A stretch of 10,912 bases of DNA from an uncultured Deinococcales bacterium (GCA_964247135.1 CAXTTL010000166.1:1-10912), one strand, 5' to 3'; shown: positions 39 to 10,911, counted from the stretch's first letter. The notes: generated by a model not told the origin, from the sequence alone. Numbers and translations are program-made.

Positions 39-118
39 GCAATTTGGTATGAAACGCTAAACTGCCAGTCACAATGGTTAGAATCTCGAGTTCTGAAAAT
101 CAATCTCATCCCAAGTCG

Positions 119-124
119 TATACT
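119..124 (+). promoter_or_regulatory. -10 element TATACT of a probable leaderless lspA transcript
   Basis: TATACT, then 7 nt, then ATG at 132, with no Shine-Dalgarno. This is the geometry of Deinococcota leaderless mRNAs. Confidence 0.7.
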
Positions 125-131
125 GGTGTTT

Positions 132-653
132 ATGCAGTTTCTTCCTTTTTTAATTGTCGCGGTCTGGGTGGCGTTCGATCAGTGGCTCAAAGCTTGGGTC
201 GTGGCAAACATTCCAAACATCAATGACTTTTCGGGCGCGGTTCATACCATTCCTGGTTTTTTATCTCTGCTGCACACCACCAACAAGGGCGCGGCTTGGA
301 GTTTATTCTCGAGCGCCACACCTGTTCTGGTGGTTTTGCGACTTGTGGTCGGCGCAGCCATTTTGTACTGGGTGGTGCGTCAACCCAAACTCCCCAAAAT
401 TCAGATGGTCGCCTACAGTTTGATTGTCGGCGGTGCGTTCGGTAACGCCATCGACGGCTTGTTGCGCGGCGAAGTCGTGGACATGCTCTGGAGTCATTGG
501 CTGAGTGCGGTGTACGGTCTAATCCGTCGCGGCGAACAATTTCCAATTTTTAACATTGCCGATACGGGCGTGGTTTGCGGCGTGATTTTACTGCTGATCT
601 CGAGCTTTTTGATCCCAGAGAAACCCAAAACCTCTGCCAAACTCGAGGGTTGA
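132..653 (+). CDS. lspA: Lipoprotein signal peptidase (signal peptidase II)
   Basis: Motifs DQxxK, NxGAAWS, GGAxGNxxD, VVDM and FNIAD, plus four hydrophobic segments. ATG 132 preferred over GTG 126 because of the -10 spacing. Confidence 0.95.
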   Translation: MQFLPFLIVAVWVAFDQWLKAWVVANIPNINDFSGAVHTIPGFLSLLHTTNKGAAWSLFSSATPVLVVLRLVVGAAILYWVVRQPKLPKIQMVAYSLIVGGAFGNAIDGLLRGEVVDMLWSHWLSAVYGLIRRGEQFPIFNIADTGVVCGVILLLISSFLIPEKPKTSAKLEG

Positions 654-654
654 A

Positions 655-1371
655 TTGAACCTCGAGATCGCCATTGAACGCCTTCATGGTGCGGCTCGAG
701 TCGCCGTGTTGACGGGCGCGGGAATCAGTGCCGAGTCGGGCATTCCGACGTTCAGGGATGCGCAGACGGGCTTGTGGGCGCAGTACAATCCCGAAGATTT
801 GGCAAGTCCACAAGCTTATGCTCGAGACGCGAAATTGGTTTGGGATTGGTACGCCTGGCGTTTTGAGGTCTGTACCAATGCCAAGCCCAATGCCGCCCAT
901 GAAAAACTGGCAACACTCGAGCAACGCACACCAGAATTCTTGCTGGTCACGCAAAACGTGGACGGTTTGCACGCCAGGGCTGGTTCGGAGCGCATGGTCG
1001 AATTGCACGGCAACATCATGCAGGCGCGGTGCGAGTCCTGCAATCTCAGGTTTACCCTCGAGGTGGGTTTTGAAATCCCGCCACACTGCCCAATTTGTGG
1101 TGCTCGAGCGCGACCAAACGCGGTTTGGTTCGGTGAACAACTGCCGCGCCGTGAACTCGAGCGGGCGCAACAAGCCTTTCAAAGCTGCGAGGTTGCCCTG
1201 GTGATCGGCACGAGTGGCGTGGTCGAACCCGCCGCCAGCCTCGGACGAATTGCCAAAAACAGGGGCGCGTTCTTGATCGAAGTCAATCCACTCGAGACGC
1301 CACTCTCGAGCTTTGCCGATGCTTCCATTCGGGCTGGGGCGGTTGCTGGACTCGAGTTACTTGGCTTGTAA
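655..1371 (+). CDS. cobB: NAD-dependent protein deacylase, class III sirtuin
   Basis: GAGISAESGIPTFR, TQNVDGLH, HG, two CxxC zinc pairs and GTS. The WYxxR Tyr/Arg pair is typical of desuccinylating class III sirtuins. TTG start 1 nt after the lspA stop, with GAGGG upstream. Confidence 0.92.
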   Translation: MNLEIAIERLHGAARVAVLTGAGISAESGIPTFRDAQTGLWAQYNPEDLASPQAYARDAKLVWDWYAWRFEVCTNAKPNAAHEKLATLEQRTPEFLLVTQNVDGLHARAGSERMVELHGNIMQARCESCNLRFTLEVGFEIPPHCPICGARARPNAVWFGEQLPRRELERAQQAFQSCEVALVIGTSGVVEPAASLGRIAKNRGAFLIEVNPLETPLSSFADASIRAGAVAGLELLGL

Positions 1372-1409
1372 TACGCCGTTTGGCGCAACCTCAACCTGAT
1401 TTTCTCTTG

Positions 1410-1431
1410 TACACTGCGGCTCGAGAAGGTG
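1410..1431 (+). promoter_or_regulatory. Possible -10 (TACACT 1410-1415) and RBS (AAGGTG 1426-1431) for the nucleotidyltransferase pair
   Basis: TANNNT hexamer in the cobB-NTase gap and an SD-like sequence 5 nt before ATG 1437. No clear -35. Confidence 0.4.
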
Positions 1432-1436
1432 CTTTG

Positions 1437-2402
1437 ATGATTGACGTTCAGCCACACAAATTGGTTTACCTGTCCAAATCGGGTTCGTATCTTTTTGGCA
1501 GCAACACGCCCAAGAGTGATTTGGACGTGAAAGGCTTATTCTTGCCTTCGCGCTCGAGCTTGTACTTGCAAAACGCGCCGCAGCAGTTTTCGCAAAACAC
1601 CAACAATTCCAACGCCAAAAACTCGAGCGAGGATGTCGATGTCACGGTTTGGAGCGTACAATTCTGGTTGAAGTTGCTTTCCAAAGGCGATATCAACGCG
1701 GTCAGTTTGCTGTTCTCACACACCAATCCAACTGCAATTCTCGAGGGAACAGATGCGGGGTTTCTCGAGCGATTAAAAGCACTTGATCCGACCAAATTAC
1801 TCTCGAGAAACCTCTCGGGGATGATGGGTTTTGCCTACAATCAGGCGATCAAGTACACCGCCAAAGGTCGGCACCTTCACGCGGTTCAAACGGCGATCTC
1901 GATTCTGACCCAAGCCTCAAAAGGGGTCATCGCGGATGTTGCCGATGTGATCGTGACCCAAATTGCCGATGAAAGCATGGCTCGAGTTCAAGTCGGTTCA
2001 AAAGGCATCAGGCAACTCGTGTTGCTCGAGAAAATGTTTGATTTCACGGCGACCACCGCCTGGGCGCTCGCGCCGCTTCAGGAGGTCGAGGCACGATATG
2101 GCAGACGCGCAAAATTGGCGCTCGAGGCGGGTGTGGATTTTAAGGCGTTCAGTCACAGTTTGCGGGTGCTCGAGGAAATCCGTTTGTTGCACAGTTTTGG
2201 GCGCATTTCGTATCCGCACACTGGCGATTTTGCCGAACTGATGATGGACGCCAAAATGGGCATACTCGAGTATGAGGTTTTGGTTGAACAACTTGACCGT
2301 AAACTCGAGGAAGCGCGAGATTCAGAAAGCTCGAGTGTTCTGCCTGAAACCCTTGATCCGAGTTATGCCGAAGCGTTTTTGCTGTCGTTGTACGAGGTTT
2401 AA
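1437..2402 (+). CDS. Pol-beta superfamily nucleotidyltransferase, RlaP/PF10127-like long form (resembles phage T4 NrdC.11-type proteins)
   Basis: Signature GSYLFGSNTPKSDLDVKG (GS...SDxD), a third acidic site EDVD, the segment LLSKGDINAVSLL, and C-terminal GVDFKAFSHSLRV...YP. ATG 1437 (has an SD) preferred over TTG 1380. Confidence 0.78.
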   Translation: MIDVQPHKLVYLSKSGSYLFGSNTPKSDLDVKGLFLPSRSSLYLQNAPQQFSQNTNNSNAKNSSEDVDVTVWSVQFWLKLLSKGDINAVSLLFSHTNPTAILEGTDAGFLERLKALDPTKLLSRNLSGMMGFAYNQAIKYTAKGRHLHAVQTAISILTQASKGVIADVADVIVTQIADESMARVQVGSKGIRQLVLLEKMFDFTATTAWALAPLQEVEARYGRRAKLALEAGVDFKAFSHSLRVLEEIRLLHSFGRISYPHTGDFAELMMDAKMGILEYEVLVEQLDRKLEEARDSESSSVLPETLDPSYAEAFLLSLYEV

Positions 2403-3764
2403 ATGACCCAAATCGAACAAAAAATTCTTGAAGCCGTGACTGCCAATGGGGGAGAGCTGTACCAAGTTGGCGGCGCGGTGCGCGATTCATTTTTGGGACT
2501 CGAGAACAAAGACCAGGATTTTCTGGTGACCAACCTCGAGCTTGGCGTGCTGCAAGCCGCACTCGAGCCATTTGCGCGGGTTGATCTTGTCGGCGCAAGT
2601 TTTGGGGTTTTAAAGGTTTCTCTCGAGCATGAAACCGTGGATATTGCCCTGCCCCGCACCGAACGCAGCACGGGCGTTCATCACCGCGATTTTGAAGTTT
2701 CACACGATGCCAGCCTCAAACTCGAGGATGATCTGGCACGGCGCGATTTTACGGTCAACGCGATGGCATTGCGGGTAAGCGATGGCGTGTTGATTGACCC
2801 GTTTGGCGGTCAGGATGATCTCAAAACTCGAGTCTTGCGGTCTGTCGGTAATGGCTCGGATCGTTTTGCCGAAGACCCCTTGCGGATGCTTCGGGCGGCA
2901 CGGTTTCTTGCAAAACTTGATTTCACACCCAGTACTGAATTGATGGTGGATGCTCGAGCCAGCGCGGACTTGATCCTCAGCGTTGCGTTTGAGCGAATTC
3001 AAACCGAGTTGTTCAGTTTGCTGGCAGCAAAATCTGCAAATGGGGTGCTTCGAGCGCTCGAGTTCTTGCGCGACACGGATTTGCTCGAGCGCATCATTCC
3101 CGAGTACAAAGTTTGCATCGGCTACGATCAACAAAATCCCTATCATCACCTCACGCTCGAGAATCACATGTTTGAGGCGGTACGTTATGCAGTTTCCAGG
3201 GACGCGAGTCTGAACGCTCGGGTGGCGTTGTTGTTCCACGACATTGGAAAACCCAGAACGCAATCGTTTGGCACTGAAGGCGTGGCGCATTACTACCGCC
3301 ATGAAGACGTTGGCGCGGACATGACCCGCAATATTCTCGAGCGTCTGCGCTGCTCAAATGAAGTCTTGCATTCGGTGGTCAAGCTCGTGCGTGAGCACAT
3401 GCGACCCCCAAAAAAGTCGAGCGGCAAAACCTTGCGCCGCTGGATGAACACGCTGGGCGAAGACTGGCGCATCGCGCTCGAGGTGCGTGAAGCTGACATG
3501 AATGCCCACAAACCAGAACCGAATTTTGAGCCTCGAGCTTGGGTTGAGGGTATTCTCGAGCGCTGCGAAAGTTTTGACCTGAGCGTTGTGACTTTTGACG
3601 AGCGCCAGCTTGCGCTTTCGGGATTCGAGATCATGCAAGCTTTTGATTTAAAACCTGGTTCAGAACTCGGACGCCTGAAAAAACTGGCTGCCCAAGCCGT
3701 GATTGACGGTGAACTCGAGAATCGAGCAGAAGGGATTCTCGAGTGGCTGAGGAAAAGAGCCTGA
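2403..3764 (+). CDS. cca: Class II tRNA nucleotidyltransferase (CCA-adding type) with HD phosphohydrolase domain
   Basis: GGAVRD...DQD (motif A), intact RTE flexible loop, DLARRDFTVNAMA (B), DPFGG (C), FAEDPLRMLR (D, EDxxR) and ERI (E). HD domain residues H...FHDIGKP...H...H...D. ATG directly follows the upstream TAA, with GAGG at 2394-2397. Confidence 0.9.
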   Translation: MTQIEQKILEAVTANGGELYQVGGAVRDSFLGLENKDQDFLVTNLELGVLQAALEPFARVDLVGASFGVLKVSLEHETVDIALPRTERSTGVHHRDFEVSHDASLKLEDDLARRDFTVNAMALRVSDGVLIDPFGGQDDLKTRVLRSVGNGSDRFAEDPLRMLRAARFLAKLDFTPSTELMVDARASADLILSVAFERIQTELFSLLAAKSANGVLRALEFLRDTDLLERIIPEYKVCIGYDQQNPYHHLTLENHMFEAVRYAVSRDASLNARVALLFHDIGKPRTQSFGTEGVAHYYRHEDVGADMTRNILERLRCSNEVLHSVVKLVREHMRPPKKSSGKTLRRWMNTLGEDWRIALEVREADMNAHKPEPNFEPRAWVEGILERCESFDLSVVTFDERQLALSGFEIMQAFDLKPGSELGRLKKLAAQAVIDGELENRAEGILEWLRKRA

Positions 3765-3766
3765 GA

Positions 3767-4315
3767 TTATCGCTCGAGCATCGAATCAAAAGCACTTGGC
3801 TTTTTGCGGGTTTTCCATGCCGAAATGATAGTTTGGACATTGGCATCCAAGTTGTTCGTGGCATCAATCTCGAGGTCATAGACACCAAAGGTATGTACGA
3901 AAGCCAAATGCTCACGTGCCTCACCAATTTTGCGGTCTCTACGCTCTAGCTCACGTCGTTCAAGCTCTGGTAATGGGCAATGCACCCCAACAAAAAACAC
4001 ATCAAATGGCGCAAGAAGCTCGAGTAGTAACCGCATCCATTCTTGGGTTTCAATGACGTGCTCAACAATTAGGTTATTGCCAGCTTTTGCAAGTGCTGGC
4101 AGACTGTCGTGAAAGCCTGCAAAGAATTGTGGGCGCAAATCTGACCACAAAAATTCTTGGCTTTTGATCCGCGCTTGCGGCAAGATGTTGGCGGCAACCA
4201 GGTGGTCTGACGAATAATGCCAGAATGGTTGCTCGAGTTTGGCTTGCAGCGCTTTGGACAGTGTGGATTTGCCTGAACTTGATGCGCCATTGACGAGAAT
4301 AATTTTGCCTTCCAT
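3767..4315 (-). CDS. Chloramphenicol-phosphotransferase-like P-loop small-molecule kinase
   Basis: IILVNGASSSGKST Walker A, NLIVEHV, VGVHCPLPELERRE..R.DR..G.A and YDLEIDAT. Start moved to ATG 4315 because TACACT lies 6 nt upstream. Substrate unknown. Confidence 0.85.
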   Translation of the reverse strand: MEGKIILVNGASSSGKSTLSKALQAKLEQPFWHYSSDHLVAANILPQARIKSQEFLWSDLRPQFFAGFHDSLPALAKAGNNLIVEHVIETQEWMRLLLELLAPFDVFFVGVHCPLPELERRELERRDRKIGEAREHLAFVHTFGVYDLEIDATNNLDANVQTIISAWKTRKKPSAFDSMLER

Positions 4316-4321
4316 CACACC

Positions 4322-4327
4322 AGTGTA
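4322..4327 (-). promoter_or_regulatory. -10 element TACACT, leaderless start of the CPT-like gene
   Basis: Minus strand reads TACACT-GGTGTG-ATG, with no SD. Confidence 0.7.
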
Positions 4328-4331
4328 AATC

Positions 4332-4366
4332 AAAAAAGCTCGAGAGAAACGGTTTCTCTCGAGCTT
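4332..4366 (-). terminator. Rho-independent terminator of recA
   Basis: 15-bp perfect inverted repeat AAGCTCGAGAGAAAC (4336-4350) / GTTTCTCTCGAGCTT (4352-4366), ending in T6 on the minus strand, 15 nt after the recA stop. Confidence 0.9.
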
Positions 4367-4381
4367 CAGGAGCTTTATGGC

Positions 4382-5473
4382 TTATTCTGCTTCTTCTGGA
4401 ATCGCCACTGCCACGATCTTATCGGCTTTGCCCGCCCGAATTGCCTCGTGCACTTTCAGACGAATTTCTTCCTCGAGCGCCTTGTTGTTGGTCAGCAATT
4501 CGACCACTTTTTCTTTGCCCTGCCCGATGCGTTCGCCGCCGTAACTAAACCAACTGCCGGCTTTTTCAATGATGTCCAAGCCCACCGCCAAATTCACCAC
4601 GTCGTTCAGTTGGTCGATGCCGCGCCCGAAGAAAATCTGCACTTCGACCTCTTTGAACGGCGGCGCGACTTTGTTCTTGACCACTTTGATCTTGACCGTG
4701 TTGCCCACGGCATCGTTGCCGACTTTGATCGGTTGCCCGATGCGCCGAATGTCAAGCCGCACGCTCGAGTAAAACTTGAGGGCTTTACCGCCAGTGGTGG
4801 TCTCTGGATTGCCGTACATCACACCGATCTTCTCGCGCACTTGGTTGATGAAGATCATGGTGCAGTTGCTTCTCGAGAGGATTGCGGTCAGTTTGCGCAA
4901 GGCTTGGCTCATCAAACGCGCTTGCAAACCAGGCAGCGAATCGCCCATGTCGCCCTCAATTTCGGCTCGAGGCACGAGTGCCGCCACGGAGTCGATCACC
5001 ACAATGTCCACCGCGCCCGAACGCACCAGCAGCTCGGCAATCTCGAGCGCCTGTTCGCCGGTGTCGGGTTGGGACACCAACAGTTCTTCGATGTTGACGC
5101 CGAGCGCTTTGGCGTAGACGGGGTCGAGCGCGTGTTCGGCGTCGATAAACGCCGCCGTGCCGCCCTGTTTTTGGCATTGGGCGATGATGTGCAGGGTCAG
5201 TGTGGTTTTACCGCCCGATTCGGGTCCGTAAATTTCGATCACACGACCTTTTGGTATGCCACCCACGCCAAGCGCCAGGTCGAGTGACAGCGAACCTGTG
5301 GGGATCACGCTGACATCGAGCCTCGAGTCGGCGGAGAGTTTCATGATCGAGCCTTTGCCGAATTGTTTTTCGATTTGGCTCATTGCGCCGTCGAGGGCTT
5401 TTTTGCGTGCGGCGGTGTCTTCAACCTGTTCGACTTGCGGTTGTGAGGCGTCTTTTTTTCTGGTTGGTGTCAT
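4382..5473 (-). CDS. recA: Recombinase RecA
   Basis: [11 protein letters not shown], Walker [51 protein letters not shown] and [15 protein letters not shown] 7 nt upstream (5481-5485). Confidence 0.99.
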
Positions 5474-5545
5474 GGTGTTGCTCCTATTCCTTGAGGGCGC
5501 TGTCTGGCGGGCGTGATGGTTGCGAGGCGTCGTGTCAGTCGAGGT

Positions 5546-6322
5546 TCATGTGGTGTCTCCTAATAAATATCGATCAAAGATGGTGTAATTGGGTCCTTCT
5601 TTGGTTAGAACGCTCCTTACCAGTGCAAATTCTGTGATTTGCCATTCCAAATCGAGCACCATCGGGGCGGGTCTGGGGCTGGCGCCTTTTTTGCGGGCGA
5701 GCGTGACGTGGGATTTAAATTTTTCTTCGGGCACAACCTCGAGTTTGTCGCGCAGCGCTTCGTGAAGTGCAGCGAAAATCTCAGATTCTGCTTTGACAAA
5801 CCAAACCCTGGGTCCGCCCTCGTTGGGGAAAAATCCCGTGCCGCGCAGTTTGGCACTAAAACCCTGGTGTTGTTTGCCGATCTCGAGCGCAACTTTTTGA
5901 GCATTCTCGAGGATTTTCTTGTTCGCGCCGCCAAGATACAAAAGCGTGACGTGAAATTGATCGCTCGGGGTGGCTTTCCACCATTTGCCGACCAGTTTTT
6001 TTTGCATGTCCTCGAGTGCTGGGTGAAGTTCTTTGGGAAGAAATATGCCAAAAAAATAGCGTTCTTGCGGTACGCCCGCCCGCGCTCGAGCCTTGGAATT
6101 CTCGGGCTTGACACGGTTTTGGTTGCGTTGACCTTTTTTGGCGTTGTTCTTGTCTCGCGCGATTGAATTTGCCGATTTTGGTTTGGTTTCTCGAGGTTCG
6201 GTTGTGGTTTCTCGAGGGTCTGTTTTGGCGGGTGCTGGTTTTTTGCCCCGATTGTAGAGTTGCGGTGTGGTTGGGCGCGGTTTGGTTTTCGCGTCTCGGG
6301 TTTCTGGTTTTTTGTCGCTCAT
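5546..6322 (-). CDS. thpR: 2H phosphoesterase (RNA 2',3'-cyclic phosphodiesterase, LigT/ThpR) with basic low-complexity N-terminal extension
   Basis: Two HxT motifs (FHVTL, SHVTLAR), FP...PRVWF, and position between cinA and recA. ATG 6322 overlaps the GNAT stop (ATGA). Confidence 0.9.
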   Translation of the reverse strand: MSDKKPETRDAKTKPRPTTPQLYNRGKKPAPAKTDPRETTTEPRETKPKSANSIARDKNNAKKGQRNQNRVKPENSKARARAGVPQERYFFGIFLPKELHPALEDMQKKLVGKWWKATPSDQFHVTLLYLGGANKKILENAQKVALEIGKQHQGFSAKLRGTGFFPNEGGPRVWFVKAESEIFAALHEALRDKLEVVPEEKFKSHVTLARKKGASPRPAPMVLDLEWQITEFALVRSVLTKEGPNYTIFDRYLLGDTT

Positions 6323-6864
6323 GCGCTCACCAACTTTGCTTGCGATTTTAACCAATTGACCCGCTCAAGCTTAAAAAAAGCAGTCGGCAAACCGTGAATA
6401 TCATTTTTGTGGTGTGTGAATTCAAAGCCAAGTTTTTGAGCTAGGATTTTTAACGAAGCGCTGTTTTCTGGGTCGGCAGTCGCCAGAATGATCTCGAGTT
6501 TGACGGTTTGAAAACCATGCTCGAGCATGGCGCGTGTGGCTTCGCTGGCGTAACCTTGCCCCCAAGCGGATTTGGCAAAACCGTAAATGATTTCGGGCTG
6601 GCTGGTGTCCTCGCCAAAGACCAGTCCACAATAGCCAATCATGGTATCACTCGAGTTTTCAATCACCGCCATTGCCCCAAAATTCTGGCGTTGGTAATTC
6701 GCTTTGGAAACCTTAATCCAGTGGTCGCATTGCTCGAGACTCAACGGTTTGTTGTCGCCCACAAATTGCATCACATCTTTATCGTTGCAAATGGCATACA
6801 GCGCCGCCAGATCGTCGGTTTCAAAGCCGCGAATGGTCAGTCGTGGTGTCTCGAGTTGAATCAT
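6319..6864 (-). CDS. RimJ/RimL-type GNAT N-acetyltransferase
   Basis: LETPRLTIR N-terminus, IGYCGL, acetyl-CoA loop WGQGYASEA and N.AS...KLGF. ATGA overlaps with both neighbours. Confidence 0.9.
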   Translation of the reverse strand: MIQLETPRLTIRGFETDDLAALYAICNDKDVMQFVGDNKPLSLEQCDHWIKVSKANYQRQNFGAMAVIENSSDTMIGYCGLVFGEDTSQPEIIYGFAKSAWGQGYASEATRAMLEHGFQTVKLEIILATADPENSASLKILAQKLGFEFTHHKNDIHGLPTAFFKLERVNWLKSQAKLVSA

Positions 6865-8102
6865 GTTTTGACCTGATCTGTGAGCTGCCGCCAGAGTTGC
6901 CCGAGCGCGTTTAACGCCGCACGTTCTTTGATCGTGCGCCGATCTCCCGCCGTGGGCAGTGCGTAAGCCTCAGCGCCGTCTGGTCCTGCAACGCCGACAA
7001 ACAAAGTGCCGACGGGCTTGCCCTCGCTGGCGTCTGGACCTGCGACGCCTGTGGTGCTGACGCCCCAAGTTGTACCGAATTGCGTTTTGGCAGCAATCGC
7101 CATCTCGAGCGCCGTTTCGCTGCTGACTGCGCCGTGTGCGGCAATCGTTTCGGCTTTGACACCCATTTTGATTTTCGCCTCGTTCGAGTAGGTGATGGCG
7201 CCGCCCTGAACGTAACGGCTCGAGCCTGAAACGTTGGTCAGTTCGTCCGCCAATAAGCCACCCGTTAGACTCTCGAGCGTGGCGATGGTTTCACCGCGTT
7301 TGACCAGCAATTGCCCGACAATTGCCGCCAGGCTTTCGTCGTCGTAACCGTAAATATGCCCCTCGAGTGCCGCTTGAACTTTTGCCTCAATCGGTTGCGC
7401 CAAAGTTTTGGCTTCCTCCAGCGTCGCGGCGCTGGCGGCAACGCGCACGTGAACGCCGTCGCGCCGCGCATAGGTGGCAACGCTTGGGTTGGCGCTTTGC
7501 GTCAGGTCGGCAAGACGTTCGGCAATGTGGCTTTCGCCGATGGCAAAGGTGCGAAACGTGCGGTGGTAAAAGCCGCTCGAGGGCAGGTTCAGGCGCGGCA
7601 GGACTTGCTCCGCCCACATGCGTTTCATCTCGCGGGGCGGTCCAGGCATGGCGACAATCACGGTGCTCGAGTTTGGAAGGCGCACAAACCAACCAGGCGC
7701 CGTGCCGACGGGATTCTCGAGTGCCTCACCTGAAGGAATAATCCAAGCCTGTTTGTTGTTGCTCTCGGGGTAGCTGCGCCCACGAGCCGTAAAAAAGGCT
7801 TTGAGCTTCTCGAGGTAGACCTCATCGATGACTGGGGTTTCACCGACCACAGCCGCAATGCCTTCTCGGGTCAGGTCGTCGTCGGTCGGTCCGAGTCCTC
7901 CGCCCAGAATCACGATGTCTGAACGTTTGCTGGCTCGGGTGATGGCTTCGATAATGCGGTCGAGGTTGTCGCCGACAATGGTTTTCCATTGAATGAAGAC
8001 CCCGCGATTTTTGAGTTCTTGCGCGAGGTAGGCGGCGTTGGAGTCAACGATTTCGCCCATCAGGAGTTCGGTTCCAACCGAGATTAATTCTGCTAGTAAC
8101 AT
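6861..8102 (-). CDS. cinA: Competence/damage-inducible protein CinA (MoCF-like domain plus PncC NMN deamidase)
   Basis: VGTELLMG, VGDN, GGLGPTDDDLTRE, NPVGTAPG and PGPPREM. PncC domain motifs ESLTGG, YSNEAK, GAVS and STTGVAGP. Confidence 0.96.
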   Translation of the reverse strand: MLLAELISVGTELLMGEIVDSNAAYLAQELKNRGVFIQWKTIVGDNLDRIIEAITRASKRSDIVILGGGLGPTDDDLTREGIAAVVGETPVIDEVYLEKLKAFFTARGRSYPESNNKQAWIIPSGEALENPVGTAPGWFVRLPNSSTVIVAMPGPPREMKRMWAEQVLPRLNLPSSGFYHRTFRTFAIGESHIAERLADLTQSANPSVATYARRDGVHVRVAASAATLEEAKTLAQPIEAKVQAALEGHIYGYDDESLAAIVGQLLVKRGETIATLESLTGGLLADELTNVSGSSRYVQGGAITYSNEAKIKMGVKAETIAAHGAVSSETALEMAIAAKTQFGTTWGVSTTGVAGPDASEGKPVGTLFVGVAGPDGAEAYALPTAGDRRTIKERAALNALGQLWRQLTDQVKT

Positions 8103-8116
8103 AATTGCACCTCAAG

Positions 8117-8145
8117 AGTTTAGCATGGACAGAGCATATTGTGAA
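8117..8145 (-). promoter_or_regulatory. Sigma70-type promoter of the cinA operon: TTCACA-N17-TAAACT with extended -10 TG
   Basis: -35 at 8145-8140, -10 at 8122-8117, exact 17-nt spacer, TGn before the -10. Confidence 0.65.
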
Positions 8146-8152
8146 GGTCATT

Positions 8153-9091
8153 TTATCGCTTGAGGGATATAGAAGAGAAGTCAAGCCCGAGTTTCAAGCC
8201 CCCAGCTTCAAGATTCGTTTTCTCGAGCGCATCAATTCTCAACACCGCCAGCGCCGTAAATCCTGTCTCAAACGGCACAACATGCCCAAGTTGTCCAACT
8301 TCTCGTCCATCAGACATCACTGGCGTTCCAGTTTCCAGGTGCGTCTCAAGGTTCACCCGCGCCAAAGTCTTATTGCTGTGACCTCGAGCATCCAATCGCG
8401 CCATGATTTCCTGCCCAACGTAGCAACCCTTTTTAAAACTGACACCCTCCAAAAGCCCGCATTCCTGGGGCAGCATTCCCGTAAAACCGTCTGCGTGCGC
8501 GTTTGGGAATTTTGCATTTATTCGCAATTTCTCGAGGTCTGGAAACGGTAATAGATTTGCGCCTTTTTCCTCGAGCCATGCACAATAAGTCTCGAGATGA
8601 GCCGTTTCAATATGAATGTCATAACCCATTTCGTTACCGCGATTGTTATTTCCAACTAAGAAAACCCCATTAGATTTTTCATAAAATCCCATGATACATT
8701 CACAAACGTATAAATCTTGTTTTGAAGTATAAATTTTATCTGGATAAATATTACTATGAATAAATTCAATATTTTCTCCAGAAACATGTATAACAGAAAT
8801 ATATTTAGAAATGTCCTGAAGTTGTACGTCATCGAAAACGATCATTTTTTGAAGACGAGTTAGCAATGAACTCTCGAGTCCGCCAACAGTGTAAATGCAA
8901 ATATCTTCTTCTCTACGGTAAATTCGGACATCAAACTCAATCTGTCCTTTCACGTTCAAAATCAATGAACGTGCCACACCAGGAATAGGCAGCGCTTTTA
9001 TATTCTGCGAAACTTGTCCTTGGACAAAATCCAACCTGTCACTGCCAGTCACACGAATTGCGCCGCTTGGAATCTGGGTAAAAAAAGCCAT
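8153..9091 (-). CDS. ygfZ: YgfZ/GcvT-family folate-binding protein
   Basis: VTGSDRLDFVQGQ, LNVKGQI and the signature KGCYVGQE. Confidence 0.93.
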   Translation of the reverse strand: MAFFTQIPSGAIRVTGSDRLDFVQGQVSQNIKALPIPGVARSLILNVKGQIEFDVRIYRREEDICIYTVGGLESSLLTRLQKMIVFDDVQLQDISKYISVIHVSGENIEFIHSNIYPDKIYTSKQDLYVCECIMGFYEKSNGVFLVGNNNRGNEMGYDIHIETAHLETYCAWLEEKGANLLPFPDLEKLRINAKFPNAHADGFTGMLPQECGLLEGVSFKKGCYVGQEIMARLDARGHSNKTLARVNLETHLETGTPVMSDGREVGQLGHVVPFETGFTALAVLRIDALEKTNLEAGGLKLGLDFSSISLKR

Positions 9092-9097
9092 AACTCG

Positions 9098-9103
9098 AGT
9101 TTA
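9098..9103 (-). promoter_or_regulatory. -10 element TAAACT, leaderless start of ygfZ
   Basis: Minus strand reads TAAACT-CGAGTT-ATG, with no SD. Confidence 0.7.
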
Positions 9104-9168
9104 TTGCAGATGTTGGCTGACAATTGTAAACGGTGGCTCGAGACACAACTTTATGTTCAAGAAACCCC

Positions 9169-9174
9169 CACAAT
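9169..9174 (+). promoter_or_regulatory. -10 element CACAAT, leaderless start of the DUF427 gene
   Basis: CACAAT-GACGGC-ATG(9181), with no SD. Confidence 0.55.
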
Positions 9175-9180
9175 GACGGC

Positions 9181-9693
9181 ATGAACCGACCAGTGCCAAT
9201 CAAACCAGCCAAAGATCAAGAATCGGTTTGGGATTACCCGCGCCCACCGCGCCTCGAGCCGAGTTTAAAACGCATCGAAATCATTGCTGGGGGCGTCAAA
9301 ATCGTGGATTCGAGCCGCGCATTTCGGGTGCTCGAGACGAGTCATCCGCCCGTGTATTACATTCCGATCATTGACATCAAGGCAGAACACCTCGAGTTGG
9401 CGGGCGGTTCCTCTTTTTGCGAATGGAAGGGCGCTGCGAAATATTACAACCTTCGGGTTGGTCAGCCTTCGGTACTCGAGGCTGCCTGGTTTTATCCCGA
9501 CCCAAGCGAGCCTTTTTTGCCAATCAAAGACCATGTCGCGTTTTATGCCGCTCGGGTGGCGCTGCGGGGCGGTGATGGGTGTTTTGTGAATGGCGAACGG
9601 GTTGTGCCGCAACCAGGCAATTTTTACGGCGGTTGGATCACCAGCGACATTGTCGGACCGTTCAAAGGCGAGGCTGGCACTTGGGGCTGGTGA
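9181..9693 (+). CDS. DUF427 family protein
   Basis: ESVWDYPRPP, VLETSHPPVYYIP, SFCEWKG.A.Y, AAW.YP.P and FYGGWIT..IVGPFKG..GTWGW. ATG 9181 preferred over GTG 9133. Confidence 0.9.
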   Translation: MNRPVPIKPAKDQESVWDYPRPPRLEPSLKRIEIIAGGVKIVDSSRAFRVLETSHPPVYYIPIIDIKAEHLELAGGSSFCEWKGAAKYYNLRVGQPSVLEAAWFYPDPSEPFLPIKDHVAFYAARVALRGGDGCFVNGERVVPQPGNFYGGWITSDIVGPFKGEAGTWGW

Positions 9694-9716
9694 GCGCTGA
9701 TGAGCTTTGAGACATC

Positions 9717-9749
9717 AAAAAACCGTCAAGCAGTTCGCCTGACGGTTTT
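9717..9749. terminator. Bidirectional rho-independent terminator between the convergent DUF427 gene and rpsT
   Basis: AAAACCGTCA (9719-9728) / TGACGGTTTT (9740-9749), with T6 on the minus strand and T4 on the plus strand. Confidence 0.85.
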
Positions 9750-9762
9750 AAAATTCTAAGAT

Positions 9763-10089
9763 TTACGCAGCTTTGGCGGCGTTGACTTTGTTGATGGCTT
9801 TCATCAGACGGCTCTTTTTGCGGGCTGCGGCGCGTTTGTGCAAGGTGCTGCCTTTGGCGGCTTTGTCGATCAAGCTTTCGGCTTTGCGTCCCAAGGTCAC
9901 GGCGTCGGTGGCGGCTTCGGTGGCGGCGACCAAGGCTTTTTTGCTGAATGTTTTGATGGTGCTCTTCAACGCGCGGTTGACGGCGCGGTGCTTCAGGCTT
10001 TGACGGTGACGCTTTTCTTGGCTTTCGCCACGACGCTTGCTTTTCTCGGTTTTGCGTGCCTTGCGGTTCTTGGGTTTAACGTCTGCCAT
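9763..10089 (-). CDS. rpsT: 30S ribosomal protein bS20
   Basis: [10 protein letters not shown]...KSTIKT and [25 protein letters not shown], the Deinococcus/Thermus-type S20 pattern. Confidence 0.97.
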
Positions 10090-10223
10090 TTTTCTCTTCT
10101 CAACCCGTTTGGGTTTGCGGACAAAACTTTCTGCCCGAAGCGTCGGTTCAGTGTCCCTGAACCGCGCAATGCGTTTTCACGCACGTCGCATTCGCCAAAA
10201 TGCGGCTTCTCCCGTTTGGGAGC
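10090..10223 (-). promoter_or_regulatory. Structured 5' leader of rpsT (candidate cis-regulatory RNA)
   Basis: Five adjacent hairpins fill the region between the predicted TSS and the start codon. The first and last share CCC-AAAC-GGG. Confidence 0.5.
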
Positions 10224-10229
10224 TTTGGA

Positions 10230-10238
10230 ACTGTATCA
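10230..10238 (-). promoter_or_regulatory. Extended -10 promoter TGaTACAGT for rpsT
   Basis: TGn-TACAGT on the minus strand. The predicted TSS near 10223 coincides with the base of the first leader hairpin. Confidence 0.6.
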
Positions 10239-10263
10239 CAGCTTCTGGCTTTTGACCAGAGCC

Positions 10264-10911
10264 TTAACCTTTTTCGCGCTCGAGCCGTGCCAGCACGAGT
10301 TTCTCGAGGTTGCGAATCAGCTTGGTGTGCGGCATCGATTTTTCGCTTAAGGGTTTAACCAGCACACTGTACATGCCCGCCAGGTTCGCGCCGAGCACGT
10401 CGGTAAACATTTGATCGCCCACCATTGCGATCTGGTTGGCAGGCAGCCCCAGCTCTTGACGGGCGCGTCCAAAAGCCTGGGGAATCGGTTTTGCCGCCAT
10501 CCGCAAGCCGAGAATCCCAACATGGTCTAGATTGAACAATTCGCAAAATTCGAGGATTCGCTTCGGATGACCGTTTGAAACGATGCGGATTGGGATGTTG
10601 GCTTGGCGCAACGGTGCCAGCCACGCCCGAATTTGGGTTTCGTTGCCTGGCAGATGGGTTGGCGCCAGGGTGTTGTCAATATCGAGTGCCAAGCCTTTTA
10701 AGTCGCGGGCGGCTAACCATGCTGGCGTAATTTCAAAGGCGCTTTCGAGTTGAGTGCTTGGGGTCAGCAACTTTAACCAAGTTGGGGTTGCTCGAGCGGG
10801 CAACGATGTGATGTTTGGATTGGTGAGCGGGGCAGTAGCAGAAATTGCAGGCACATCCAACTCGCCCGAGATGATCCGTGCCAGATAACTCAAAATGTCG
10901 CGTTCAACGAT
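10264..10911 (-). CDS. YqeG-type HAD IIIA phosphatase, 5' end outside the window, with extra N-terminal region
   Basis: LALDIDNTL (DxD), IVSNG, AKP, MVGDQMFTDVLGANLAG and LVKPL. The frame is open upstream of TTG 10893 to the window edge (IVERDILSYLARIISGE). Confidence 0.88.
   Translation of the reverse strand: MVERDILSYLARIISGELDVPAISATAPLTNPNITSLPARATPTWLKLLTPSTQLESAFEITPAWLAARDLKGLALDIDNTLAPTHLPGNETQIRAWLAPLRQANIPIRIVSNGHPKRILEFCELFNLDHVGILGLRMAAKPIPQAFGRARQELGLPANQIAMVGDQMFTDVLGANLAGMYSVLVKPLSEKSMPHTKLIRNLEKLVLARLEREKG

Follow-up and report, generated by a model that had tools for sequence, protein, structure and literature searches.

CTCGAG, a hyper-abundant palindrome of HIP type, is maintained by a selection-like force in a family of uncultured Deinococcales

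Introduction

The DNA uptake sequences (DUS) of Neisseria and the uptake signal sequences (USS) of Pasteurellaceae are 9-12 bp long, non-palindromic and present about once per kb, and USS are known to imprint the proteomes of the genomes that carry them. Very-short-patch repair by Dcm and Vsr enriches CCWGG in Escherichia coli less than about 2-fold and depletes one deamination variant. Chi, in turn, is asymmetric and oriented with replication; it serves as a dense self-mark for a DNA-processing machine, and phages can acquire it. Here we deal with the six-base palindrome CTCGAG in an uncultured Deinococcales bacterium, starting from a DNA stretch of 10,912 nucleotides (the window, by which we mean the whole stretch that was analysed). 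The window is contig C166 of an assembly of 5,091,702 bases in 386 contigs (genome G000). We show that the abundance of CTCGAG is genuine and extends over the whole clade, and that this palindrome is of the same type as the highly iterated palindromes (HIPs) of cyanobacteria.

One of these is HIP1, GCGATCGC; alternate HIPs exist, and the accessible part of the source gives a density of 300-2,700 HIP1 copies per Mb (Elhai 2015, PMC4390886). In that same part, Elhai (PMC4390886) proposed that HIP1 marks strands or resident DNA for repair or recombination. A nucleoid or chromosome-structuring function was proposed for HIP1 by Xu et al. 2018 (PMC5861425), who, in the sections available, also argued from positional conservation against continual neutral replenishment. 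Hyper-abundant palindromes have so far been a cyanobacterial puzzle, with their function unsettled after three decades. As to the hexamer itself, an orphan methyltransferase for CTCGAG is described in Nocardia, whose replication origin has clusters of the motif (Blow et al. 2016, PMC4752239, in excerpt), and the accessible portion of a 2026 hot-spring metaepigenome preprint has CTCGAG among the methylated motifs of a host-phage group, with the phylum not named. The word CTCGAG does not occur in the accessible text of Elhai 2015 (PMC4390886). CTCGAG hyper-abundance was not met with in a literature search that did not extend to the supplementary tables of Elhai, Xu and Blow, which may contain motifs or methylomes of relevance.

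Results

CTCGAG is the commonest hexamer of the genome

The window holds 90 copies of CTCGAG between positions 85 and 10796, the first starting at 85 and the last occupying 10791-10796, with a mean spacing of about 120 bp. In 200 dinucleotide-preserving shuffles the expected count was 2.00 (standard deviation 1.32, maximum 6), and none of them reached 90. A sequence-only reading of the window had put the count at about 90 and called the motif strongly over-represented, and the effect turned out to be even stronger than it claimed. With 12 long open reading frames (ORFs) taken as proxy genes, 57 sites lie in the CTC-GAG frame, 15 in the NCT-CGA-G frame, 14 in the C-TCG-AG frame and 4 outside ORFs. 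A Leu-Glu site is found, for instance, at 642-647 (plus strand) in the signal peptidase II gene (126-653), where the protein ends in ...AKLEG. The examples given by the sequence-only reading for the remaining two frames were correct, and so was its statement that sites occur in all three: those at 308-313 and 599-604 contain the serine codon TCG, while those at 695-700 (in the Sir2-family gene, 655-1371), 2827-2832 and 3532-3537 (both in the gene at 2403-3764) contain the arginine codon CGA, all on the plus strand. It was also right that sites occur between genes, but its count of six was not upheld: the 12 ORFs leave four (85-90, 4339-4344, 4358-4363 and 9094-9099), a number that depends on the choice of start codons.

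The same picture emerged from the whole genome, in which CTCGAG is the commonest of all hexamers. Its 33,925 sites, one per 150 bp, make up 4.0% of all bases, and the runner-up among palindromic hexamers has 3,272 copies. Observed/expected ratios are 24.7 from base composition, 35 under a first-order Markov model, 14 under a second-order one and 3.5 under a third-order one, the last of which already contains the motif's own tetramers. CTCGAG is thus a short palindrome over-represented at least 15-fold genome-wide, as is characteristic of HIPs. The possibility, raised by the sequence-only reading, that the enrichment is confined to this contig can be dismissed, as each of the 386 contigs carries at least 2.56 sites per kb, and there are at least 3 sites per 3-kb window. 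An assembly artefact is likewise refuted by a similar density in 18 other independent assemblies of the same family, one of them a single contig.

Codon usage does not account for the excess, and the motif has left an imprint on proteins

As a coding proxy for the genome, not a real annotation, we used 4,562 non-overlapping longest ORFs that cover 87% of it. They contain 28,867 CTCGAG sites (17,579 + 4,583 + 6,705 by frame), 61% of them in the CTC-GAG frame. When synonymous codons were shuffled with the proteins and per-gene codon usage kept, 4,004 sites were expected, which gives a 7.2-fold excess (5.7-, 14.0- and 11.6-fold by frame); shuffling of codon order left an expectation of 1,695. The synonymous shuffle is conservative, because per-gene codon usage is itself shaped by the motif. 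Persistence of the enrichment in a codon- and dipeptide-preserving shuffle was the test on which the sequence-only reading had staked its claim that codon-pair bias is an insufficient explanation, and the claim stands. The density is 7.59 per kb outside the proxy genes versus 6.51 per kb in coding DNA, so that, as with HIPs, all reading frames and non-coding DNA are occupied.

The imprint on the proteome is considerable. The most over-represented dipeptide is Leu-Glu, with an observed/expected ratio of 2.38, while that of the reverse dipeptide, Glu-Leu, is 1.01. Among 22,935 Leu-Glu dipeptides 76.6% are encoded by CTC-GAG, where codon usage alone predicts about 11%, and 44% of all CTC and 44% of all GAG codons lie in sites. 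Synonymously permissive positions are filled to 46% and 43% in the other two frames, the range over frames being 43-77%. The force behind CTCGAG has thus more than doubled the Leu-Glu dipeptide, a visible cost at the level of protein sequence.

Sites are retained between related genomes

We aligned 350 kb of a genome of the same genus (G005) to that of the window and obtained 234 kb in 81 blocks at 84% identity. CTCGAG was conserved at 1,311 of 1,637 sites (80%), compared with 44.7% for all other hexamers sharing its codon frames; outside genes it was conserved at 123 of 156 sites (79%) versus 44%, and other palindromic hexamers, pooled, reached 35%. The differences found at sites were transitions, spread evenly over all six positions. 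Third codon positions were conserved far better inside sites than outside (CTC 93% versus 65%, GAG 93% versus 72%, TCG 95% versus 70%, CGA 90% versus 61%; 68% for all four-fold sites), and where a Leu-Glu dipeptide was conserved its DNA was identical in 90% of cases if encoded by CTCGAG, versus 37% for other encodings. Sites conserved above control motifs and codons conserved better inside than outside them are likewise what is seen in HIPs. The view that a genome-wide process retains the site, put forward from the window alone, is therefore well supported (80% versus 45% conservation, with synonymous positions protected inside sites).

After correction for multiple hits, synonymous change inside sites runs at 0.167 times the rate outside, i.e. 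about six-fold slower, and by the standard fixation formula this would correspond to S = 2.9 in population-scaled units. The equilibrium ratio of the motif to its one-mismatch variants, 27.2, would give a logarithm of 3.3. The agreement of these two independent values fits a balance of mutation with selection or, equally, with biased conversion. We thus infer a force of about 3 per site in population-scaled units, weak at any one site and acting on some 34,000 of them. It is directional and acts on DNA, not on proteins, and is seen in all three frames and between genes. What maintains CTCGAG is thus a selection-like force whose target is the exact hexamer.

A single mismatch abolishes the effect

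All 18 one-mismatch variants have observed/expected ratios between 0.08 and 1.74, and the motif is 27 times as frequent as the mean variant. Variants reachable by transition are slightly commoner than the others, which is expected if they are decay products. Those expected as deamination products of a methylated C show no depletion (CTTGAG/CTCAAG 1.17, TTCGAG/CTCGAA 1.74). One-mismatch sites are conserved in 36% of cases versus 45% for ordinary hexamers, and 14.8% of them read CTCGAG in the sister genome. The enrichment and conservation of one-mismatch variants that marks HIP1* is therefore absent here. The general depletion of such variants, considered in the sequence-only reading, was not found against base composition either, yet they are 27-fold rarer than the motif and less conserved.

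The flanks of CTCGAG are close to random beyond 3 bp, with a weak symmetric preference at intergenic sites (A at -3 in 43%, A at -2 in 34%, G at -1 in 35%). A longer repeat or a mobile element carrying the hexamer was considered and ruled out on account of these nearly random flanks. Spacing is near-Poisson (coefficient of variation 0.96; variance/mean 1.12 in 1-kb windows), and density is flat across gene starts. Pairs of sites less than 20 bp apart are 2-3 times rarer than the plateau, resembling footprint exclusion, and no helical phasing at 10-11 bp was found in the genome. A spacing of 6 bp is never seen in the genome because it creates GAGCTC, which has no copy there.

Three side observations belong here. 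In the first 30 bp past stop codons there are 12.3 CTCGAG per kb versus about 6.5, and these copies may be part of terminator stems. GAGCTC, the motif with its halves swapped, has 0 copies in 5.09 Mb, and hence none in the window; it is also near zero in two CTCGAG-rich genomes labelled as another family (G154, G155), and 16 of the 19 genomes of the window's family have at most 25 copies. About 25 other six-base palindromes fall below an observed/expected ratio of 0.1 (GGGCCC 1 copy, CGGCCG 3, AGGCCT 4, CGTACG 5, GGATCC 7), which points to long-standing pressure from many restriction systems.

CTCGAG is missing from low-GC islands

Most of the genome's longest stretches without a site (1.5-2.6 kb) are islands whose GC content is 27-40%. 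Such CTCGAG-free islands, set in normal contigs, lie at C13:4758-14537, C70:14168-16419, C4:51525-53438, C20:7986-9674 and C1:102561-104483. They encode a reverse transcriptase-trypsin-like protease fusion, an AbiEii-like AAA_21 ATPase, AAA_16/TPR STAND-like ATPases, an O-antigen ligase and ORFs belonging to no family, and look like newly acquired defence or accessory DNA. As such recently acquired DNA lacks the site, CTCGAG marks DNA that has long been resident. A PF01555 methyltransferase gene (C189:4859-5653), with 39% GC and zero CTCGAG in surroundings of normal density, also looks recently acquired.

The motif is switched on and off among relatives

The nearest named relative of the window's RecA belongs to a Deinococcales metagenome-assembled genome (82% identity), whose 11-kb locus has 97 CTCGAG versus 5 expected; the claim that a palindrome is highly iterated in a non-cyanobacterial lineage thus holds. 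The window's uncultured Deinococcales family comprises 19 genomes from five genera, and every one of them carries 4.3-6.8 CTCGAG per kb; in a survey of 363 genomes of the order the density ranged from 0.01 to 8.6 per kb. G154 and G155, which bear the label of another family, reach 7-8.6 per kb genome-wide and 7.5-9.4 in samples. These samples display the full syndrome: observed/expected 29-32, 5.6-6.7 times over the shuffle, 8 per kb between genes and a Leu-Glu ratio of 2.5-2.6. G156, of the same genus label, is neutral (0.23 per kb, observed/expected 0.9; the samples of these three genomes are L321-L336). Rough protein identity to the window's genome, from different genes in small samples, is 56% for G154/G155 and 45% for G156, so these labels are to be read with care.

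An intermediate load (1.4-3.6 per kb, 2-5 times over the shuffle) was found in G037 and in several genera of families f5, f4 and f2, with Leu-Glu ratios of 1.2-1.6 and, in the high-GC genomes among them, much of the excess in the CTC-GAG frame. Genus g7 of family f3 (111 genomes), on the contrary, avoids CTCGAG, with 26-1,372 copies per genome of 2-6.7 Mb; a sample of it (L339-L340) has 0 copies in 40 kb at 65% GC. No XhoI-family nuclease was found in the one g7 genome searched.

In alignable conserved genes, the sites of the window's genome were found in common with G154/G155 at 26 of 39 positions versus a 16% baseline, with G008 at 36 of 122 versus 18%, and with G037 at 24 of 65 versus 13%. 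With G011, the single-contig genome of the family, sharing (18 of 83 versus 18%) was not above the baseline, and recA and cinA of the window against locus L001 (74.5% identity) gave, in a very small sample, 2 of 9 versus 20%. Sharing across families may reflect saturation of permissive positions, not common descent.

At least two virus-classified contigs among the matches listed are also rich in CTCGAG: G031 (72.9 kb, L315-L318) and G032 (36.9 kb, L319-L320). Observed/expected is 8 in both, and the synonymous shuffle is exceeded 2-2.5 times; the intergenic density in G031 is 4.4 per kb. GAGCTC has 0 and 1 copies, respectively, and many palindromes are missing altogether. The two contigs may derive from phages that infect CTCGAG-rich Deinococcales. 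A comparison of the two contigs with the window's genome found no nucleotide or protein similarity, and the palindrome-avoidance profiles match only partly.

Genes of the window

The 12 proxy ORFs encode signal peptidase II, a Sir2-family protein, an RlaP-like nucleotidyltransferase, an enzyme of the CCA-adding/poly(A) polymerase family, a CPT-like kinase, RecA, LigT, GNAT, CinA, a GCV_T-fold protein, a DUF427 protein and a predicted phosphatase. The recA gene (4382-5473, minus strand), which we used for placing the organism, has six sites (4472, 4764, 4872, 4966, 5042, 5322). It stands in a row of minus-strand genes with cinA (6861-8102), the GNAT gene (6319-6864) and ligT (5546-6355); a cinA-ligT-recA arrangement is known from Deinococcus radiodurans. 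If translation of LigT really begins at the TTG codon, its N-terminus is extended by about 100 residues rich in lysine and proline. An 804-bp gap without CTCGAG (9481-10278) belongs to the top 0.6% of the genome's gaps by length. Within it lie a small basic ORF (9763-10089, minus strand), by eye a candidate ribosomal protein S20-like gene, and the region upstream of this ORF; a search of the gap for structured RNA found no Rfam family and no tRNA.

Discussion

What may read CTCGAG

Our favoured, though tentative, explanation is that CTCGAG is the recognition site of a protein with the exactness of a restriction-modification enzyme, which modifies or nicks the chromosome and has been put to a housekeeping use. 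All-or-none dependence on six bases is a hallmark of restriction-modification-type enzymes, and it is because of this dependence that we favour a modifying or nicking enzyme. Such a protein would need all six bases, so that a site with one mismatch would be worthless to it; it would modify or nick DNA along the whole chromosome, and its housekeeping use would improve with CTCGAG density. That use could be the marking of strands or of resident DNA for repair or recombination. The density of one site per 150 bp matches that of a four-base signal such as GATC. It is conceivable, if less likely than not, that CTCGAG is more specifically the code of a chromosome-wide system for recognition of resident DNA, with an exact-hexamer reader, no conserved methyltransferase and a lineage-switched state. 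As the state differs between close relatives (G154/G155 versus G156), a contrast of gene content could identify the reader.

A number of results weigh against the favoured explanation. Searches with five Pfam families (PF00145, PF01555, PF02086, PF02384, PF07669) in the genomes of the family, most of them incomplete (57-94%), did not find a family-wide methyltransferase. The window's genome has 12 candidate DNA methyltransferase ORFs; five of them were traced across the 18 other family genomes and proved sporadic, with orthologues in about 3, 3, 4, 3 and 6. The remaining seven are a helicase-methylase fusion on C112, a pair of MmeI-like enzymes, HsdM, the low-GC enzyme of C189, a partial C4 gene and C5a, which was compared in five genomes. 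Among five good genomes the C5 enzymes share 25-35% identity with one another, except for single pairs, and hence are not orthologous; the sole C5 methylase of single-contig G011 does not exceed 35% identity to the C5 methylases of four other genomes of the family, and G011 has no PF01555 enzyme at all. The PF07669 matches of about 500 amino acids are Type I HsdM-like. Methylase specificity is unreadable from sequence here, and non-orthologous enzymes could share one specificity.

Partner proteins of methylases fared no better. An XhoI-type nuclease (PF04555) was found in 0 of 19 family genomes, while the same search registered one only in outgroup G021, where the nuclease adjoins a PF01555 methylase; in those hyper-abundant genomes that were examined, this methylase has no relative exceeding 29% identity. 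CTCGAG thus does not behave as a Type II restriction-modification target (XhoI/PaeR7I type), for which a cognate endonuclease would be present and the site avoided or protected: here it is enriched. MutH (PF02976) was found in 2 of 19 family genomes, which does not suggest MutH-type repair, and Vsr in 0 of 19. With no Vsr and no depleted deamination variant, there is no support for Dcm/Vsr-type repair either, and gene content thus does not favour the methylase-plus-Vsr mechanism considered in the sequence-only reading. The pair G155 (on) and G156 (off) was compared for PF01555, PF07669 and PF04555, and these candidates were rejected, as no explanatory difference appeared. Two features of site distribution are further points on this side. 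The 23S rRNA gene of G011 (L163, L165) has 1 CTCGAG in 2.9 kb, while its flanks have 18-22 in 3 kb (6-7 per kb) and the 23S gene of outgroup G019 has 3; and the variance/mean ratio of 1.12 gives no sign of selection for even coverage.

Other explanations of the excess

The phylum is known for natural transformation, and a molecular drive such as that of DUS and USS, in which the competence machinery prefers CTCGAG-bearing DNA and recombination spreads the sites, would fit the imprinted proteome, the absence of the site from newly acquired islands, the patchy on/off distribution among relatives, the near doubling of density just past stop codons (12.3 per kb) and a force that resembles biased conversion at about 3 per site. 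Competence machinery is indeed at hand, as ComEC was found in 18 of 19 family genomes; but it is equally present in motif-free lineages, and as all 12 outgroups searched have it too, its presence does not discriminate. Uptake signals have an asymmetric core of 9-12 bp and occur about once per kb, whereas CTCGAG is a palindrome of 6 bp at 6.7 per kb, and since one site per fragment should suffice, the drive would be expected to stall far below the density observed. Worthless one-mismatch variants would also be unusual for receptor binding, and the two virus-classified contigs, whose hosts are unproven, are enriched 8-fold, also between genes. We consider an uptake drive unlikely. Somewhat less likely still is that CTCGAG is the binding site of an abundant nucleoid or chromosome-structuring protein that leaves DNA unmodified. 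A palindrome suits a dimeric binder, pairs closer than 20 bp are depleted, intergenic flanks have a weak palindromic preference (A at -3 in 43%, G at -1 in 35%), sites are distributed uniformly over the genome, and no methylase is required, which is consistent with none having been found; against this, all-or-none dependence on six bases is atypical of architectural proteins, 10-11 bp phasing is lacking and no candidate protein was identified.

Functionless biased repair, converting near-sites or heteroduplexes towards CTCGAG, would leave the same population signature as weak selection, and the plain transitions over all six positions in the sister genome agree with it. Nevertheless it appears improbable to us, because the equal disfavour of all 18 neighbours requires recognition of the full site anyway, deamination variants are not depleted (CTTGAG 1.17, TTCGAG 1.74), Vsr is missing (0 of 19), and positional conservation of the kind argued for HIP1 in the available sections of Xu et al. 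2018 is also seen for CTCGAG. We give practically no credence to the idea that the excess follows from codon usage, from dipeptide content or from selection for Leu-Glu at the protein level. Although 61% of coding sites are in the CTC-GAG frame, and in high-GC relatives the excess lies mostly in that frame at only about 2 times over the shuffle, such an origin is ruled out by both shuffles (7.2-fold over the synonymous one, and 11-14-fold in the other two frames), by a density that is highest between genes and by the Glu-Leu control, and synonymous protection is found only inside sites. Equally negligible is an artefact of assembly or library, or a short mobile repeat: nothing was found in its favour, and there are 19 independent assemblies including a single-contig one, sites aligned in sister genomes and nearly random flanks. 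The list of processes drawn up in the sequence-only reading has thus been narrowed by the tests, while none of its entries is settled.

Why CTCGAG matters

CTCGAG offers an independent case of a hyper-abundant palindrome, with a shorter word and at least 2.5 times the highest HIP1 density in the accessible part of Elhai (PMC4390886). The 363 genomes form a natural series from absent through weak and moderate to extreme, with an avoiding genus in addition, so that comparative gene identification is feasible. If a resident-DNA system were true here, it might by analogy open a route to the function of HIPs. To judge from the size and number of their genomes, the genera with a moderate load probably include cultured thermophiles, in which case experiments could be done. 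In practical terms, CTCGAG dominates the k-mer signatures used in binning, and XhoI would reduce such genomes to pieces of some 150 bp if the sites are unmodified.

Comparison with known systems

CTCGAG differs from DUS and USS in being a 6-bp palindrome at 6.7 per kb, with an uptake preference that is hypothetical, and resembles them in its over-representation in both orientations, a signature like that of biased conversion, the peptide imprint, its scarcity in foreign DNA and the presence of competence genes. With Dcm/Vsr it has in common that a repair or modification system would shift the abundance of its own recognition site; unlike there, the enrichment is 25-35-fold, no specific variant is depleted and Vsr is found in 0 of 19 genomes. 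Like Chi, it would be a dense self-mark of resident DNA, but being palindromic it cannot be oriented with replication. The orphan methyltransferase of Nocardia shares with our case the same hexamer and a use outside restriction, as far as the excerpted text of PMC4752239 goes; theirs, however, is a local cluster next to dnaA, whereas here saturation is genome-wide, and no orthologous enzyme was identified.

The closest relative remains HIP1, again as described in the accessible parts of the cited sources. Both are short GC-rich palindromes, over-represented tens-fold in all frames and between genes; both are conserved above control motifs, and their constituent codons are more conserved inside sites than outside; both undergo patchy replacement or loss among relatives, in genomes where many other palindromes are strongly avoided. 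The differences are that CTCGAG has six bases instead of eight, another sequence and another phylum, that no co-distributed methyltransferase was found for it, and that its one-mismatch variants are neither enriched nor conserved, while HIP1* variants are. Its density, 6,660 per Mb, compares with 300-2,700 per Mb for HIP1. CTCGAG is a HIP-like element of new sequence, in a new phylum and at record density.

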